From assembly GCA_024710905.1 (NCBI GenBank), contig JANJTV010000065.1:20985-84984 (forward strand): a stretch of 64,000 bases of DNA. The letters run 5' to 3'. Shown here one piece after another: positions 2,571 through 10,440 of this stretch; the stretch's first letter is position 1; every line of letters begins with the position of its first letter. Source of the DNA: Anaerolineales bacterium. GTDB lineage: Bacteria; Chloroflexota; Anaerolineae; Anaerolineales; Villigracilaceae. Both the position numbers and the translations under genes were made by a program. The notes beneath the pieces are model-generated. The model searched no databases. It worked only from the letters and a program-made list of their open reading frames with translations, and was not told the DNA's origin.

Positions 2571-3356
2571 ATGACCATGACATCTCCAATTATTACCGCG
2601 ATCTTCTCCCAGAAGGGTGGTGTTGCCAAAACAACCACTTCCTATTCATTGGGCGCGGCGTTGGCAGAAATGGGCAAAAAAGTACTGCTGATCGATCTTG
2701 ACCCGCAGGGCAACCTGACCATTGCCAACGGAATCGAGCTGGCAGAGGTGCGTGCTGGCAGTGCCGAGGTCCTGTTAGATGGTGTCAACATGACCGGCGC
2801 AATCATGGATACAAATACCGAAAACCTGAAGATCGTACCCGCCAGCAGCAGGCTGGGCCAGGTTGAGTCTTTCCTGCCAGTACGAAATAATTACCTGTAC
2901 ACGATGAAAACCGCCCTGGCCCAGGCTGACCTCGAAGACTATGACTTTGTTGTCATGGATTGTCCCCCCGCAGCAGGCGCCATCACCATGAACGCGCTGA
3001 CCGCCACCAAGCTGCTAATCATCCCCACCCAGGCGGAATACTTCTCGGCGTATGCCCTGCGTGACATGATGACACTGGTGAGGCGCATCCGCAAGGAAAC
3101 CAACCCGGACCTCGCCTACCGTATCCTGATCACCATGCTGGACCAGCGGAACCGCGCCCACCGTTCCATCCGCGAACAGTTATTGCAGACCTTCGGCAGT
3201 GGCCTGTTTAATGCCGTGATTGAGATTGACACCCGACTGCGCGAAAGCCCAATCCTGGGGTTGCCCATTACCCAGTACAAACCCAACAGCCGCGGCTCTT
3301 TGCAATATCGTGTGCTGGCACAGGAGCTGATTGATCATGTCAAACAAGAAGCTTGA
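2571..3356 (+). CDS. ParA/Soj-family P-loop ATPase
   Basis: Deviant Walker A motif SQKGGVAKTTTSYSLGAALA, then LLIDLDPQGNLT and VVMDCPP. Size is 261 aa. A GAGAAGGAA RBS lies upstream. Confidence 0.9.
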   Translation: MTMTSPIITAIFSQKGGVAKTTTSYSLGAALAEMGKKVLLIDLDPQGNLTIANGIELAEVRAGSAEVLLDGVNMTGAIMDTNTENLKIVPASSRLGQVESFLPVRNNYLYTMKTALAQADLEDYDFVVMDCPPAAGAITMNALTATKLLIIPTQAEYFSAYALRDMMTLVRRIRKETNPDLAYRILITMLDQRNRAHRSIREQLLQTFGSGLFNAVIEIDTRLRESPILGLPITQYKPNSRGSLQYRVLAQELIDHVKQEA

Positions 3357-6300
3357 CAAGCGGCTTGGCAGCCTTTTTGAAGACATTAAGGTTGAAGGCA
3401 ACGAAACTGAGCCTGCGCCAAAGCCGCCGTCACCCCCCAAGGCCAGTCCGCCGCCTGCAAAAAAACAGCCTGTTGCGCCTCGCAGCCCAAAAGCAGAAAA
3501 GCCCACACCGGAACCCAAGGCTTCCCGTCCACGTAAAGCGGCTGCCCGGCCCGAGCCAGCATCCGAGCTGGCTGTGTATGATGAGTCCTCGACCACGCTG
3601 ACCATCCCAATCACTACAGGCGAAACATGGAGCGTCCTCGAACTGGTGGATGACAGTCGAGACGGGTGGCTGGATGAAGAAAAAGCGCTTGCCCGACAGG
3701 TGGTAGACCAGCTCACCCTGGCTCTACAAAACGCCAACCTGTTCCAACAAACCGAACGACAGAACCGCAGTCTGGCCGTGTTGAATGAAATGGGCCGCGA
3801 ACTCACCACGCAGACCACCTTGCAGGAGATCAGCGAAACCATATTTAAATATACCGGCCAGTTGATGGATGTCTCATCCTTCTTTATCGCTATCTTTAAC
3901 GAAGAGGCCGATGAGCTCAGCTTCCCTGTCGTTACCGTGGACAGTGAACGCATTTCGTTTAACCCACGCAAGATTGGGCGCGGCCTAACCGACTATATCA
4001 TCCGCAATCGCGTTCCCTTGCTGATGAACGAAAACATCCCAGATCGCATGAAAGAGCTGGGGCTGGAATTTATCGCCATCGGCAACAACAAGGCGCCGCT
4101 TTCCTGGCTGGGTGTGCCCCTGCAGGTCGGCGAGAAGATTCTCGGTGCTGTGGTTGTCCAGAGCGTGGAACATGCCTACCTGTACGATAAAGAAGAACTG
4201 GAATTGCTCTCCAGTATTGCTTACCAGGCCGCCATCGCCCTGGAAAGTGCCAACCTGTTCCAGCAGACACAGCAGCAAAACCTTGAACTCGGCATCCTGA
4301 ACGAGATGGCCAACGAACTCTCCACGCTCTCAAATATTGAGGGAGTGGCAAATATTGTTTACAAGTACACCGGCAAATTGATGAATGTGACTGATTTTTT
4401 CCTTGCCGTGTACGACCAGCATACCAACAAAATATCCTTCCCATTGGTTTACTTCGACAACGACCCAACATCCATCGAAAGTACGGATATTGGCGAGGGT
4501 TTGAGCGCCTGGGTGATTAAGAATCGCAAGACCCTGCTGCTGACGGACAATGTTGAGGAGCGGGCTGCCGAGATGGGCATCCGTACCCTGACCATTGGCG
4601 ATGACGAACCCGTACTGAGCTGGCTGGGTGTGCCAATGATTCTGGGCCAGGAAGTACTGGGCCTGATTTCTGTCCAAAGCGTAGTGGCTCCACGCCTGTA
4701 CGGTCAACGCCAGGCAGACCTGTTACAGGCCATTGCCGGCCAGGCAGCCATTGCCATCCAGAATTCCCGACTGTACGAGCAGGAACAATATCGCCGCCGT
4801 GTGGCTGACACGCTGAGTGAAATGGCGCGCATTGCCGGCGCATCACTGGATTTTGAGAACGTTACCCAGAACCTGCTCAACCAATTGCCCAAACTACTCA
4901 CCTTCCATACCGCCTCGATCCAATTTGTGGATGAACAAGGGAATCGCACCCAGGCAGGCGGAATGAGCCTGCATGAAGAACGTAAAAGTGACCTGGAGCA
5001 CCCCGAAGGGCACTTCCTGCGGCCCGTCGATGAAGACCCTCTGATACGCGAAATTGTTCGTAAGAAGAAACCGGTCATCATCCCGGATACACATAACGAT
5101 GACCGATGGGAAGTGCTTCCTGAAACCCGCCACATCCGCTCGTGGCTGGGAGCCCCGCTAATGGTCGGGAATACGGTGATCGGGATCCTGATCCTGGATG
5201 ATGAGGCACCGTTCACCTATACCGAAGAGTCAATCCCCCTGGCAGAGTCTTTCTGCGCCCAGGCGGCTGTAGCCATCCAGAATGCCCGCCTGTTTGAGGA
5301 AACCCAAACGGCAGCAGCCAACTTCAGGAACTTGATTGAGAACGCTCCGGAAGCCATCGTGGTCGTTAATGTAGAAAACGGGCTTTTTGAAGACCCGAAT
5401 GAAAATGCCGCCAGGTTGTATGGGTTGCCGGTTACAGAACTGGTCAAGGTTGGCCCTGCCCAGATGAGCCCGCCGCTCCAGCCGGATGGCCGGCCATCCG
5501 CAGAAGCTGCCATGGAAAAAATCCAGCAGGCAATTCGAGGCGAGACGCCAGTATTTGAGTGGGACCATATCAATGGGCAGGGTGAGCTAATTCCCTGTGA
5601 AGTTCACCTGTCGCAAATGCCCGGTGACCGGCCGCGCGTCCGCGCAACCGTGATCGATATTACAGAACGCAAAAAGGCCCAGGAAGCCCTACGAAAAAGT
5701 GAAGAGGCCTTGCGCCGCCAGAACGAATACCTGGCTACCGCCACCGAGGTCAGCCGCCTGGTTTCCTCCACTCTGGACCTGCCCACCCTGTTCAGCCGCG
5801 CTGTGAACCTGATCCAGACCAGTTTTGCTTACTACCATGTTGCCATCTTTACCCTTGACGAAGCCGGATACACTGCCATTGTGCGCGAGGCCACTGGTGA
5901 GGCCGGGGAAAAAATGCGCGAAAGCCGTCACTCGCTGGTGGTCGGTTCGAAATCAGTAATCGGGAATGTTACCTCCAGCGGCCAGACGGTGGTGGTAAAC
6001 AACACTGCGCTCGACCCAATGCACAAGACCAACCCATTACTGCCGGAAACCCGTGCCGAAGCGGCCATCCCACTCCGAATTGGTCAGCGGATCATCGGCG
6101 CACTGGATATCCAGTCGCGGGATGTCGGCGCTTTCCAGGCCAATGACATCACCGTACTGGAAACACTGGCAGACCAGATCTCCGTTGCAATCAACAACGC
6201 TGAACTCTATGAGATCTCCCAACAGGCCGTTGAACAGATGCGCGAAACAGACCGCATCAAGACACAATTCCTGGCCAACATGTCTCATGAACTGCGCACG

Positions 6301-7728
6301 CCGCTCAATTCGATCATTGGTTTCTCGCGAGTCATCCTGAAGGGCATCGACGGCCCGATTAACGAACAACAACAACAAGACCTGACCGCAATCTACAATT
6401 CCGGGCAGCACCTGCTCGGCCTGATCAACGACATCCTCGACCTGTCCAAGATTGAGGCCGGTAAGATGGATCTCTCCTCCGATGAGCTGAACGTGGCCGA
6501 CACCATCAACAGCGTCATGTCCACCGCTATCGGCCTGGTGAAAGATAAGCCCATCCGCCTGGAAAAGCATATCGCAGAAGATGTGGTGCACATCCGCGCA
6601 GATGCAATGCGCATTCGGCAGGTTTTGCTCAACCTGATGTCCAACGCGGCCAAATTTACCGAGGAAGGTACCATCACTGTATCAGCGGAAAACAGTACTA
6701 CACCTGATGGCCTGCGTGAGGTGCTGATTAGCGTGACAGACACCGGCCCGGGTATTTCGCCGGAAGACCAGAGCAAACTTTTCCAGGCCTTCTCGCAAGT
6801 GGACTCTTCGCCCACCCGTGCCTCCGGTGGTACAGGCCTGGGTCTTTCCATTTGCCGCCGCCTGGTGGAATTGCACGGCGGGCGGATTGGCATCCATTCG
6901 GTGGTGGGCAAGGGCAGCACCTTCTACTTCACCATCCCGGCTTTTGAGCAGCCCAACCTGCCCTCGGTTAACCCCAATGGTAAAGTGATTGCCTGTATCG
7001 ATGACGATACCCAGGTAACCGGGCTATACCAGCGTTACCTCCAACCACAGGGATACGAAGTGGTTGCCCTGACGAACCCCGCCACGGCCAAAGAAACAGT
7101 GAAACGCATCAGGCCGTATGCCGTCACCCTCGACATTATGATGCCGGGAATTGATGGTTGGAGCATCCTCGAACAACTTAAGAATGACCCGGAAACCCGC
7201 GACATCCCGGTCATTATCTGCTCCATCGTTGAAGAAGAAGAAAAAGGCTTCAGCCTCGGTGCATCGGATTACCTCGTTAAACCGATTATGGAAGAAGACA
7301 TCACCCGTTCATTGCAGCGCCTGAATGGGGATGGAAGCATCCGCCATGTGCTGGTCATTGACGACTCTCCTGACGACCTGAAATTGATGGAGAAGATCCT
7401 GAAAACCGCCGGGCGCTACGAAGTGCAGCTGGCCCAGGGCGGAAACCAGGGCTGGGAGAAACTAAGCGACACCCCGCATCCACAGGCAGTAATCCTGGAC
7501 CTGTTCATGCCAGACCTGAGTGGCTTCGAGATCCTTGAGCGCATGCGCGTCACGCCGGAAATGCGCGACATCCCGGTCATTGTCGTCAGCGGCGCAGAAC
7601 TGACTGTCGATCAGAAAAAACACCTCGAGAACCTGGGCAAACGCCTGCTGCAAAAGGCCATGCTCGGCGAAAAAGAGCTTTTCAGTGAACTGGAAAAAAC
7701 CTTGAAACGCATCGAACAGCCGGAATAA
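3337..7728 (+). CDS. hybrid sensor histidine kinase: basic/Pro-rich tail, multiple GAF, PAS, GAF, HisKA, HATPase, two REC domains
   Basis: H-box FLANMSHELRTPLNSIIGF. HATPase motifs DTGPGISPEDQSKLFQAF and GGTGLGLSICRRLVELHGG. Repeated GAF signatures LSWLGVP...G..LG...VQS. PAS-like NLIENAPEAIVVVN. Two receivers (IDDDTQV...LDIMMPGIDG and VIDDSPDD...LDLFMPDLSG). The start could be ATG 3337 or TTG 3331; either overlaps the ParA stop at 3354-3356. Confidence 0.9.
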   Translation: MSNKKLDKRLGSLFEDIKVEGNETEPAPKPPSPPKASPPPAKKQPVAPRSPKAEKPTPEPKASRPRKAAARPEPASELAVYDESSTTLTIPITTGETWSVLELVDDSRDGWLDEEKALARQVVDQLTLALQNANLFQQTERQNRSLAVLNEMGRELTTQTTLQEISETIFKYTGQLMDVSSFFIAIFNEEADELSFPVVTVDSERISFNPRKIGRGLTDYIIRNRVPLLMNENIPDRMKELGLEFIAIGNNKAPLSWLGVPLQVGEKILGAVVVQSVEHAYLYDKEELELLSSIAYQAAIALESANLFQQTQQQNLELGILNEMANELSTLSNIEGVANIVYKYTGKLMNVTDFFLAVYDQHTNKISFPLVYFDNDPTSIESTDIGEGLSAWVIKNRKTLLLTDNVEERAAEMGIRTLTIGDDEPVLSWLGVPMILGQEVLGLISVQSVVAPRLYGQRQADLLQAIAGQAAIAIQNSRLYEQEQYRRRVADTLSEMARIAGASLDFENVTQNLLNQLPKLLTFHTASIQFVDEQGNRTQAGGMSLHEERKSDLEHPEGHFLRPVDEDPLIREIVRKKKPVIIPDTHNDDRWEVLPETRHIRSWLGAPLMVGNTVIGILILDDEAPFTYTEESIPLAESFCAQAAVAIQNARLFEETQTAAANFRNLIENAPEAIVVVNVENGLFEDPNENAARLYGLPVTELVKVGPAQMSPPLQPDGRPSAEAAMEKIQQAIRGETPVFEWDHINGQGELIPCEVHLSQMPGDRPRVRATVIDITERKKAQEALRKSEEALRRQNEYLATATEVSRLVSSTLDLPTLFSRAVNLIQTSFAYYHVAIFTLDEAGYTAIVREATGEAGEKMRESRHSLVVGSKSVIGNVTSSGQTVVVNNTALDPMHKTNPLLPETRAEAAIPLRIGQRIIGALDIQSRDVGAFQANDITVLETLADQISVAINNAELYEISQQAVEQMRETDRIKTQFLANMSHELRTPLNSIIGFSRVILKGIDGPINEQQQQDLTAIYNSGQHLLGLINDILDLSKIEAGKMDLSSDELNVADTINSVMSTAIGLVKDKPIRLEKHIAEDVVHIRADAMRIRQVLLNLMSNAAKFTEEGTITVSAENSTTPDGLREVLISVTDTGPGISPEDQSKLFQAFSQVDSSPTRASGGTGLGLSICRRLVELHGGRIGIHSVVGKGSTFYFTIPAFEQPNLPSVNPNGKVIACIDDDTQVTGLYQRYLQPQGYEVVALTNPATAKETVKRIRPYAVTLDIMMPGIDGWSILEQLKNDPETRDIPVIICSIVEEEEKGFSLGASDYLVKPIMEEDITRSLQRLNGDGSIRHVLVIDDSPDDLKLMEKILKTAGRYEVQLAQGGNQGWEKLSDTPHPQAVILDLFMPDLSGFEILERMRVTPEMRDIPVIVVSGAELTVDQKKHLENLGKRLLQKAMLGEKELFSELEKTLKRIEQPE

Positions 7729-7748
7729 TCCACTTTAGGAATATCGCC

Positions 7749-9425
7749 ATGAGCAGCTTTAGTATTGTTTGCCTCGATTGCAACCATAGTACCCGTTACC
7801 ACCCGGCCGAGATCAACTGCCCGCAATGCGGCAGCCAGTGGCGCGAGGTGACTTACCCGTATAAAGAAATTGCCCCCAAACTTAAAGCCGAACTAGCCCA
7901 GCGCCCGTTTGACCTGTGGCGATTTCGCGAATTGCTGCCTGTCCACAACCCGCTGCCAACCTTGCGCATGGGTGAAGGTGGCACGCCGCTCATCCGCGCT
8001 GTTAACCTGGGCGAAATGCTCGGCTGCGAAAACATCTTCATCAAAGATGAGCGGCAGGGGCCAACCTCTTCTTTCAAAGACCGCCAGGCTGCTGTGACCA
8101 TCGCGGCACTCAAAGAAGCGGGCATCACCGAAATGGTGGCTGCCTCGACCGGCAATGTCGCCATCGCCTATTCTGCGTTTGCCGCCCGCGCTGGCATCAA
8201 GCTTTGGGCTTTTGTCACCAGCCTCGTCCCGGCAGTAAAAATGCGTGAAATCGCCCTGTACGGCAGCCAGGTCGTAAAAGTGACCGGTTCCTACGACCAG
8301 GTAAAGCAAATTGCCGCCGAATTTGCCGAAAAACGCGGCCTGTACCACGATCGCGGCGCACGAACAATTACATCGGTCGAGGGGATGAAAACAATCGCCT
8401 TTGAAACGGCCGAGCAACTGACCGACGAATTTGGTCCACTGACAGGGGCGGATGGTACACCTCGCTGGCGGACTCCCGATTGGTACATCCAGGCCATCAG
8501 CGGCGGCCTCGGCCCGGTAGGCATTGCCAAAGGGTTCCGTGAACTCCGCGAGATGGGCTTTGCCGAAGGCCACCCCAAACTGGTTGGCATCCAGGCTGAG
8601 GGCTGCGCCCCGATGGTGCATGCCTGGAAGCAAAACCTTGAAAAAGCCGAACCAGTCATGTCCCCCAAAACCCATATCGAAACCCTGGCCACAGGTACGC
8701 CGGGGCGCGCCTACGAACTCCTGCGCAAGGAAATGCTCGAGTTTGGCGGGCTATTCGAGAGCGTGACAGACGAGGAATCCTTCCGGGCCATGCACGTGCT
8801 CGCGAAAATGGAGGGCATCTCGGCTGAGCCCGCCTCCGGCGCGGCCTTTGCGGGACTCTTCAAGCTGGTGCGAGCGGGCATCATCAAGCCAACCGATGTG
8901 GTCGTCATCAACTGCACCGGCCATACCATGCCTGCCGAGCCATTGGTGCTGGGCAGCGGCTGGGCACGCAATGTCGTCCTGCCTGCTGAACAACCTGAAG
9001 CGCTACCCCAGGAAGACGGCCTGCTGGCTGCCCTGAGCCGGGTCGCGCCAGATCGCTTCCCACGCGTGGCGATTGCCGACGACACGCCGGACGCCCGGCG
9101 CCTGATTCGGCGCATCCTGCAATCTCAGGGTGACTACACGATATTCGAAGCGACCAACGGCAAGGAAGCCATTGAACTGGTCAAGCGTGAACACCCCGAC
9201 CTGCTCATTTTAGACCTGATGATGCCCGAGGTGGACGGGTTTTCGGTGCTGGACGCGCTGAAATCTGACCCGGAAACAGCACAGATTCCCGTGATTGTTT
9301 CAACAGCCAAAGAACTGACCAAGGATGAAAAGGTGCGCCTGCAAGGGCAGATTCAGTCCCTGATGCAAAAAGGTGATTTCCTAAGTGACGATTTCCTTGA
9401 AGAAGTAAAATCCATTATCCGCTAG
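7749..9425 (+). CDS. threonine synthase-like fold-type II PLP enzyme fused to a C-terminal response-regulator receiver domain
   Basis: N-terminal Zn-ribbon CLDCNH...CPQCGSQW. PLP-lysine motif GPTSSFKDRQAAV and ASTGNVAIAYSAFAA. The C-terminal ~120 aa is RVAIADDTPDARRLI...DLLILDLMMPEVDGFSVL...PVIVSTAK, a CheY-like REC domain. Confidence 0.8.
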   Translation: MSSFSIVCLDCNHSTRYHPAEINCPQCGSQWREVTYPYKEIAPKLKAELAQRPFDLWRFRELLPVHNPLPTLRMGEGGTPLIRAVNLGEMLGCENIFIKDERQGPTSSFKDRQAAVTIAALKEAGITEMVAASTGNVAIAYSAFAARAGIKLWAFVTSLVPAVKMREIALYGSQVVKVTGSYDQVKQIAAEFAEKRGLYHDRGARTITSVEGMKTIAFETAEQLTDEFGPLTGADGTPRWRTPDWYIQAISGGLGPVGIAKGFRELREMGFAEGHPKLVGIQAEGCAPMVHAWKQNLEKAEPVMSPKTHIETLATGTPGRAYELLRKEMLEFGGLFESVTDEESFRAMHVLAKMEGISAEPASGAAFAGLFKLVRAGIIKPTDVVVINCTGHTMPAEPLVLGSGWARNVVLPAEQPEALPQEDGLLAALSRVAPDRFPRVAIADDTPDARRLIRRILQSQGDYTIFEATNGKEAIELVKREHPDLLILDLMMPEVDGFSVLDALKSDPETAQIPVIVSTAKELTKDEKVRLQGQIQSLMQKGDFLSDDFLEEVKSIIR

Positions 9426-9432
9426 GAAACCT

Positions 9433-10383
9433 TTGTTCAAAACACCCCAAGCACAAACCGCTGGCATCCTGGCGGCGCTTGCCTCGGCAGTTTTCCTGGG
9501 GCTTGCGCCTGTTTTTGGGCGCTGGGCCATCCTGCTTGGGTTCAGCCCGCTTTCGGTGGTGGCCCTGCGTACCGGCCTGGCCATGCTGATGGTCTTCCTG
9601 ATCATCCTGCTATTCCAGCGCACCTTCCTGTACATCTTTCCAGTCGGCCTGATCGGCTGCCTTCTGGCAGGTGGGATTAATGGCCTCGGGTCACTATTGT
9701 ATTACATGGCGCTGGGCAAACTGCCGGCCAGCATCGGGCAACTGCTCTATTCGCTCTACCCGTTGTTTGTAGCATTATTTTCTATTTTGGATAAACAACC
9801 GATCACCCGCCTGACCATGTTCCGTGTTGGGCTGGCCAGCGTGGCCGTCTTCCTGCTTACCGGACTGGAAGAATTTAATCTTGAGCCCGCCGCAGTATTG
9901 ATGATGATTGCCGCGGCCGCCCTGTATGCCTTGCACATCCCGATCAACCAGCGCGTGCTGTATGAAATCCCCGCCCCGACTGTAACGCTGTACACCCTGC
10001 TGGCCATGACTGCCGTAACCCTGCCCGCTTACCTGCTTTTTGACCGCCAGTTACCCCCGGAAAATGCGAACTGGTGGCCGCTGGTCGGGCTGACGTTGGT
10101 AACGTTCATCTCACGACTGACGCTCTTCCTGGGGATTAAAAACATTGGCGGCGTCCAGACCGCCATCCTCGGGTTGGGGGAACTATTTATCACCCTGCTG
10201 CTCAGTTACTTGCTGCTGGGCGAAACCCTGACCTGGTTGCAGCTGCTTGGCGTGGGTATTTTGGGCTTCAGCCTGATGCTGATCATGTTGGACAAACAAG
10301 ACCCGCAGCGGCGCCGCCCGAAAGGCGGCTGGCTGGCCTGGCTACACCCGCCGGAAATCAACCCCTGGAGCTTGCAGGATTAG
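9433..10383 (+). CDS. EamA/DMT-family transporter
   Basis: 316 aa with about 10 hydrophobic segments forming two similar halves. The TTG start is uncertain. Confidence 0.7.
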   Translation: MFKTPQAQTAGILAALASAVFLGLAPVFGRWAILLGFSPLSVVALRTGLAMLMVFLIILLFQRTFLYIFPVGLIGCLLAGGINGLGSLLYYMALGKLPASIGQLLYSLYPLFVALFSILDKQPITRLTMFRVGLASVAVFLLTGLEEFNLEPAAVLMMIAAAALYALHIPINQRVLYEIPAPTVTLYTLLAMTAVTLPAYLLFDRQLPPENANWWPLVGLTLVTFISRLTLFLGIKNIGGVQTAILGLGELFITLLLSYLLLGETLTWLQLLGVGILGFSLMLIMLDKQDPQRRRPKGGWLAWLHPPEINPWSLQD

Positions 10384-10402: not shown

Positions 10403-10440
10403 AGCAGGTTGGCCACGCATGACCAACCTGCTCACTTTTT
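10403..10440. terminator. intrinsic terminator between convergent genes
   Basis: Stem agcaggttgg / ccaacctgct followed by cacttttt. Confidence 0.65.

Follow-up and report, generated by a model that had tools for sequence, protein, structure and literature searches.

A threonine synthase-like pyridoxal-phosphate enzyme joined to a C-terminal receiver in Chloroflexota: a putative response regulator with an amino-acid enzyme as output

What does a two-component receiver do at the end of a protein that looks like an enzyme of amino-acid biosynthesis? The question is raised by a gene at positions 7749–9425 (plus strand, as all gene and domain coordinates below) of a 64,000-nt stretch of DNA from an Anaerolineales bacterium (assembly GCA_024710905.1, contig JANJTV010000065.1, positions 20,985 to 84,984), which will be named hereafter the window. 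According to the list of open reading frames and its translation, the gene starts with ATG and encodes 558 residues, comprising a pyridoxal 5′-phosphate (PLP) enzyme similar to threonine synthase (ThrC) followed by a receiver (REC) at the C-terminus, and the product will be called ThrC~REC. Public records list its homologues as 'threonine synthase' or 'pyridoxal-phosphate dependent enzyme'. An earlier inspection of the DNA, hereafter the sequence-only reading, had offered two options, metabolism gated by phosphorylation or a PLP domain that serves as a sensor, and we keep these as the right pair. With a probability of roughly 0.6, ThrC~REC would be an enzyme-type response regulator that is phosphorylated on D489 by the kinase encoded immediately upstream and thereby gates an amino-acid reaction; that is, a signalling pathway probably acts here directly on amino-acid chemistry. 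This reading is favoured because the pairing with the kinase is conserved and both the receiver and the PLP machinery are intact.

Both halves of the protein were recognized by Pfam within the single reading frame, as PALP over residues 73–390 (7965–8918; E = 6.8e-67) and as Response_reg over residues 440–541 (E = 1.3e-20; 74.1 bits against a cut-off of 30.2). Full-length homologues have the same two parts, confirming the claim that one gene joins a ThrC-family PLP domain to a complete receiver. Thr_synth_N, the third Pfam family that the sequence-only reading had named, was not found in ThrC~REC; the N-terminus is the Zn-ribbon of PRK08197-type ThrC, with cysteines C8, C11, C24 and C27 (7770–7829; codons checked). 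Conservation was assessed in 62 homologues (46–89% identity) from two large clades, namely clade A, that of the window protein, and clade B, which is 45–50% identical and includes the cultured Herpetosiphon giganteus. Among these, C11, C24 and C27 are invariant and C8 is at least 90% conserved. The SFKDR motif (residues 108–112) supplies the PLP lysine K110 (8076–8078) and the STGN loop occupies residues 133–136 (8145–8156), the Zn-ribbon, lysine and loop all lying where they had been claimed. Invariant throughout the family are K110, S133-T-G-N136, S251-G-G-x-G255 within the SGGLGP phosphate loop (8499–8516), E360-P-A and T390-G-H-T. The catalytic residues are thus intact in the PLP domain, as they are in the receiver.

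The residues of the receiver were mapped by alignment to Thermotoga RR468 (PDB 3DGE chain C, and 4JA2). D444/D445 (9078–9083) form the acidic pair, D489 (9213–9215) is the phospho-acceptor, T519 (9303–9305) is followed by A520, and K541 (9369–9371), in the motif LMQKG, is the conserved lysine; their counterparts in RR468 are presumably D9, D10, D53, T83 and K105. This quintet is invariant or at least 90% conserved in the family. The acidic pair, acceptor and threonine had been picked out correctly before, but the lysine then chosen, that of VSTAKELT (K521), aligns with a non-catalytic lysine of RR468. An AlphaFold2 model built on the 62-sequence alignment (mean predicted local distance difference test score, pLDDT, 84.8; predicted template modelling score, pTM, 0.70) gave confident structures for both the PLP domain and the receiver, the latter showing an alternating strand–helix pattern over residues 439–557 (9063–9419). 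Between them lie a disordered linker, residues 398–423 (8940–9017; pLDDT below 50), and a short conserved helix, residues 425–430 (GLLAAL), and G424, L425, A428 and L429 are invariant after the linker. The best matches to the model in a Foldseek search of the PDB were the cysteate synthase CapA2 (9K3C) and ThrC structures, with E-values of about 1e-24. The receiver itself most resembles the two receivers of the upstream kinase. The second of these (kinase residues about 1335–1465) and that of ThrC~REC have in common the motif A-x-E-L-T-x-D-x-K ... L-(L/M)-Q-K-(A/G), in which QK(G/A) stands in place of the usual KP and no proline follows the conserved lysine. This looks like a distinct receiver subtype, occurring twice in one operon.

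Comparison with ThrC of Aquifex (2ZSJ) and Bacillus subtilis (6CGQ) showed that the substrate pocket differs from that of a threonine synthase. The GNAGN loop of ThrC (TGGGTG in the PRK08197 type) is SGGLGP in ThrC~REC, KDRG has become KDRQ, and STGNT has become STGNV (V137). Moreover, the arginine of the ThrC motif R-x-E-G-x-K-T aligns with S209, beside which stands V210, with no basic neighbour in clade A. In a Thermus ThrC structure with a substrate analogue, the residues that contact the substrate phosphate are, we assume, Thr88, Asn154, Ser155, Arg160 and Asn188, and these align with V137, R202, G203, S209 and a glycine of SGGLGP, respectively. That is, the residues at the presumed substrate-phosphate site have been replaced in ThrC~REC, and the replacements are invariant and clade-specific. 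When the pocket and active-site columns were compared between the clades, position 103 was Q in clade A and Y or H in clade B, position 137 was V versus A, position 205 was R or K versus variable, position 210 was V or I versus R or K, position 317 was T versus D, and position 320 was R versus mostly K. Since such positions are fixed within the clades but differ between them, the pattern indicates that the pocket would have been rebuilt under selection for defined ligands, differing from clade to clade, rather than having decayed as in a pseudoenzyme. The basic residues fixed in the pocket suggest that the substrate has an anionic side chain.

The gene order around ThrC~REC is conserved. The ATG lies 20 nt past the stop codon of the kinase gene (TAA, 7726–7728), as had been noted in the sequence-only reading, with AGGA 9 nt 5′ of it, and placement of the gene in an operon with the kinase is supported. 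The kinase, presumably the cognate one (3331–7728; 1465 residues), is a hybrid histidine kinase in which Pfam and NCBIfam detected four GAF domains, a PAS, HisKA, HATPase_c and two REC domains. Its start is overlapped by a gene for a ParA-like ATPase (AAA_31/CbiA; 2571–3356), and two GAF-GAF proteins, whose homologues head related modules, stand at the head of the module (1–2561; the first, 1–792, cut by the window edge, the second, 795–2561, a membrane protein). Downstream, 7 nt past the ThrC~REC stop, follows a 316-residue EamA/DMT-family transporter (9433–10383) with two Pfam EamA matches and a weak match to TIGR00950 (carboxylate/amino acid/amine transporter); in several relatives the EamA gene overlaps the ThrC~REC stop by 4 nt. 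The order GAF-GAF, ParA, kinase, ThrC~REC, EamA is kept across the family and the wider order, and also in one family from a different class, so that the EamA gene and the upstream GAF and ParA genes, which the sequence-only reading had missed, are part of the same conserved module. A large homologue of the window kinase is encoded directly upstream on the same strand in 20 of 20 diverse genomes across families and classes. Among 80 Anaerolineales loci, counting those with sufficient room, the kinase is directly upstream in 69 of 73, EamA directly downstream in 73 of 76, and ParA upstream in 57 of the 61 with enough flank. The kinase is also directly upstream in most loci examined of other clades, and the EamA pairing holds at class-level distance. 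In clade B the kinase and ThrC~REC genes are followed by one for a single-domain receiver and often by a PRK08197-type thrC that is the sole one of its genome. Forms of about 700 residues with two receivers have one or two single receivers and a GNAT acetyltransferase as their downstream neighbours. A canonical thrC is found just downstream of both the clade B and the two-receiver forms, and an aspartate kinase beside a stand-alone sister of the family. The idea that the thrC after the clade B genes is a resistant second copy is unsupported, as it is the sole PRK08197-type thrC above the cut-off in five genomes.

The mechanism proposed for ThrC~REC would then be as follows. The GAF/PAS-rich hybrid kinase, with its own ParA-like ATPase and GAF proteins, would phosphorylate D489 in the receiver, which is attached through a flexible linker some 25 residues long, and the effector module would be a catalytically competent PLP enzyme of threonine synthase descent with a rebuilt substrate pocket. 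Phosphorylation may change the activity or the oligomeric state of the PLP domain, normally a dimer; we infer both the transfer from the window kinase and this gating of catalysis. The reaction switched in this way could be a beta/gamma-elimination or replacement on an amino acid with an anionic side chain, and the substrate would probably be an aspartate-family intermediate or a relative of one. The recurring neighbours, namely thrC, aspartate kinase and a permease of the threonine/homoserine-exporter family, point loosely to such an identity. In the window's clade, the co-transcribed EamA permease might move the substrate or product across the membrane. Several observations weigh against this proposal. 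The kinase itself contains two receivers, and Pfam and NCBIfam detected no HPt domain in it, which makes the route of the phosphoryl group ambiguous. The receiver is C-terminal, unlike in most response regulators, and its position on the PLP enzyme is not confidently placed in the AlphaFold2 model because the inter-domain linker is disordered. Moreover, a few homologues (loci L029, L088, L095 and L175) stand without the kinase or the transporter, and the phosphate roles ascribed above to the Thermus residues are assumed ones. Finally, P0125, the representative of a 50% cluster, belongs to a clade A sublineage with a degenerate receiver (AHSDD, LLLDFFH, LMTRS and no conserved lysine) and has SIG instead of SGG in the phosphate loop; it may be a member that has escaped phosphorylation control.

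A different role for the same conserved parts has to be weighed, namely that the PLP domain is a ligand sensor. It would bind an amino acid as an external aldimine and tune the gain or loss of phosphate by the receiver, which would make ThrC~REC a metabolite-controlled phosphate sink or partner in kinase signalling. Indeed, the receiver is without any other output domain, the extra single-domain receivers in the operons of other clades could be the real output, and the window kinase has two receivers, one of them of the same QK(G/A) subtype as that of ThrC~REC. Furthermore, the conserved PLP- and carboxylate-binding residues would be needed for ligand binding as much as for catalysis. However, all residues for full PLP chemistry, including the lysine and T390, the partner of the pyridine nitrogen, are invariant over a wide divergence, and the close association with a permease in clade A is easier to reconcile with a flux of substrate or product than with pure sensing. 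Also, the literature searched offered no precedent for a PLP domain of fold-type II acting as a sensor. We consider a sensor unlikely, if still a serious candidate.

Clearly improbable is a more specific proposal, in which ThrC~REC is part of a signal-gated small-molecule factory. Here a cue received by the kinase would lead the phosphorylated enzyme to make a non-proteinogenic amino acid, acting as a signal or antimetabolite, which EamA would export. As partner genes in sister clades, the EamA permease, the GNAT acetyltransferase or the neighbouring thrC would be consistent with self-protection or with competition where the pathway branches at O-phosphohomoserine. If true, filamentous Chloroflexota would have a two-component system with a secreted amino-acid-derived compound as its output.

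Could ThrC~REC simply be a genuine threonine synthase isozyme, converting O-phosphohomoserine to threonine under phosphorylation control, with EamA as a threonine/homoserine exporter like E. coli RhtA? The PLP lysine and the fold-type II ThrC fold are both present (K110 and the Foldseek matches above), the best family matches of the protein are all ThrC models, ThrC structures are among the best structural matches, and canonical thrC and aspartate kinase occur in related contexts. In addition, we take EamA to belong to the transporter family that holds RhtA. Nevertheless, ThrC~REC scored below the cut-off of every curated ThrC model (254.6 against 303 for NF006050, 148.6 against 167.1 for TIGR00260 and 179.3 against 421 for NF004170), as well as below that of the cysteate synthase model TIGR03844 (109.1 against 324.9), and no curated NCBIfam family was found for the PLP domain or its stand-alone relatives. 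In a maximum-likelihood tree of the PLP parts, all receiver-fused proteins form one clade (support 100/98), which indicates that the fusion arose once. This clade lies inside an uncharacterised ThrC-like super-clade (100/99) that also includes a few stand-alone proteins, and apart from both true ThrC types, the short type and the PRK08197 type; when a stand-alone sister was used as the query, most of its nearest relatives were receiver-fused. The replacements in the pocket, with S209 and V210 at the motif arginine, V137 for the threonine of STGNT and SGGLGP for GNAGN or TGGGTG, argue against O-phosphohomoserine as substrate. Furthermore, the genome already has a canonical thrC of the PRK08197 type (contig C143; 394 residues, 585.9 bits), the second copy that the sequence-only reading had suggested looking for, whose product is 33% identical to ThrC~REC, and a partial short-type thrC at the end of contig C63, while a further ThrC-like gene lies on contig C115. 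Small-genome relatives retain the canonical thrC only and are without ThrC~REC. A housekeeping role was therefore rejected and a threonine synthase isozyme is very improbable; the label of an 'amino-acid-biosynthesis-type' threonine synthase given in the sequence-only reading does not hold, since the protein is below the ThrC cut-offs, in a separate clade and without the residues aligned with the ThrC substrate-phosphate site.

The spread of the fusion bears on whether the gene is real at all. A search of 400 Chloroflexota genomes for full-length co-linear ThrC~REC, a survey of the kind already called for, detected it in 24 of 24 genomes from the bacterium's own family and, at the level of the order, in two more families. 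Elsewhere in the class, five genomes from other families have it, as do two families belonging to other classes (45–57% identity). More than 120 protein clusters at 73–89% identity all have both Pfam domains. When species-representative genomes were scanned with a pattern, 587 stretches matched, and nearly all of the top 80 are labelled Anaerolineales or Anaerolineaceae. The fusion is a large, old family that chance falls far short of explaining, not a one-off. That a frameshift or mis-assembly around nt 9000–9060 merged a ThrC-like gene with a separate receiver gene, as the sequence-only reading had feared, deserves practically no credence and was rejected: although the window comes from a draft assembly (154 contigs, 6.84% estimated contamination), the same error would have had to arise independently in hundreds of assemblies, single-contig genomes and the cultured Herpetosiphon among them, and the linker (8940–9017) is co-linear among homologues, with the conserved helix motif next to it. 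One homologue, 70% identical to the window protein, lies on a contig labelled Lewinellaceae (Bacteroidota; locus L147, JADJSY010000060.1), where mis-binning of an Anaerolineales contig is the likeliest explanation, ahead of transfer. A single metagenome-assembled genome (JAFGSI01) has two clade A copies (loci L029 and L093), both about 73% identical to the window protein, one flanked as usual by the kinase on its upstream and EamA on its downstream side, the other set between genes for a CGGC-domain protein and peptide deformylase and lacking both kinase and transporter.

How does ThrC~REC compare with known systems? With the Zn-ribbon ThrC (NF006050/PRK08197) and the short-type ThrC (TIGR00260; PDB 2ZSJ, 6CGQ/6NMX, 1UIM/1V7C and 2D1F) it shares the fold-type II PLP fold, the N-terminal Zn-ribbon, the SFKDR lysine, the S-T-G-N carboxylate loop and a C-terminal TGxG motif, at about 30–33% identity and a Foldseek E-value of about 1e-24. 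It differs from them by the additional C-terminal receiver, by KDRQ and SGGLGP, by the lack of the R-x-E-G-x-K-T arginine in clade A and by its separate clade. Cysteate synthase (TIGR03844; CapA2 of Alistipes finegoldii, PDB 9K3C) is likewise a ThrC-derived enzyme with a changed substrate and ranks first among the structural matches (E = 7.5e-25; TM 0.75 on the target), but the identity is only 23%, the TIGR03844 score is below cut-off and cysteate synthase has no receiver. The CheB methylesterase, the PleD and WspR diguanylate cyclases and the RpfG phosphodiesterase resemble ThrC~REC in that an enzyme carries a receiver with the full quintet and its gene neighbours that of a histidine kinase. 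In these enzyme-type response regulators, as would hold for ThrC~REC, phosphorylation acts on catalysis and not on DNA binding. In all four, however, the receiver is N-terminal and the output bears on signalling molecules or chemoreceptors, whereas ThrC~REC would act through a PLP amino-acid enzyme and has its receiver at the C-terminus, after a disordered linker. MocR/GabR proteins, in which a PLP aminotransferase-like domain of fold-type I is fused to a DNA-binding helix-turn-helix domain, are a model for a sensor role; they too join a PLP-fold domain permanently to a signal-transduction domain, but ThrC~REC combines a fold-type II domain with a two-component receiver.

No description of a PLP or ThrC-like enzyme fused to a receiver was found in the literature searched (full text), and we rate ThrC~REC as a putative response regulator with a new class of output. 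Two-component outputs are thought to be almost always the control of transcription, the turnover of second messengers or motility. Here, in hundreds of species, a sensor kinase appears to be connected directly to an amino-acid enzyme of the PLP type and to a permease. If this is true, two-component systems would gain a new class of output and amino-acid chemistry a new form of post-translational control, and the threonine-synthase superfamily, already the source of cysteate synthase, would gain a new reaction. With members in cultured Herpetosiphon and a protein that is expected to be easy to express, the idea is directly testable.

The operon appears to end at a hairpin at 10403–10432 (13-bp perfect stem, 4-nt loop), detected by the terminator scan between the convergent EamA and OmpR-type genes. 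As it is T-rich on one side and A-rich on the other, it is likely to be a terminator acting in both directions, and beyond it lies a convergent three-gene phosphorelay. The same scan gave no terminator-like site on the plus strand in the two short gaps between the kinase, ThrC~REC and EamA genes. A promoter-like site at 7702–7729 was rejected, such sites being no commoner than in shuffled sequence.

A number of other ThrC-like genes were encountered. The neighbourhoods of the stand-alone sisters were dropped as a guide to function, their contexts being inconsistent. In one of them (locus L169), the sister lies between a phosphoadenylyl-sulfate reductase gene (cysH, whose product makes sulfite) and an aspartate kinase gene, a single case that hints at sulfur chemistry on an aspartate-family intermediate, while another sister adjoins CapK-like ligases and a Mur ligase. 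In the window's own genome, outside the window, a 319-residue degenerate copy of the PRK08197-type thrC was found on contig C71 (25293–26249; locus L181, 5294–6253). This copy has kept the Zn-ribbon, but the PLP lysine has gone with the change of SFKAR to DLEER, the AGN loop has been deleted, and the glycine loop is no longer present. Its frame shares 14 nt with the beginning of a GAF-PAS-HisKA kinase gene. Because a search of 40 genomes from the family gave no orthologue, the copy is probably a decaying duplicate, and it was rejected as a second conserved link between ThrC and a kinase. Contig C37 has two PALP genes in opposite orientation with identical scores (8927–9820, minus strand, and 66937–67830, plus strand; E = 1.4e-42, 146.3 bits each), which represent either a large inverted duplication or an assembly repeat. 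Finally, a further stand-alone ThrC-like paralogue of 422–458 residues, with the motifs TASFKDRAS and TASTGNAGA and a threonine at the position of the conserved ThrC arginine, occurs at loci L176, L177, L179 and L180 (genomes G298, G193, G330 and G166, respectively), followed by two same-strand genes of matching size. At L176, the sole annotated locus of the four, these encode an AI-2E-family transporter and a family-2 glycosyltransferase, which would make such loci a second example, among these organisms, of a ThrC-like enzyme paired with a transporter of small molecules.

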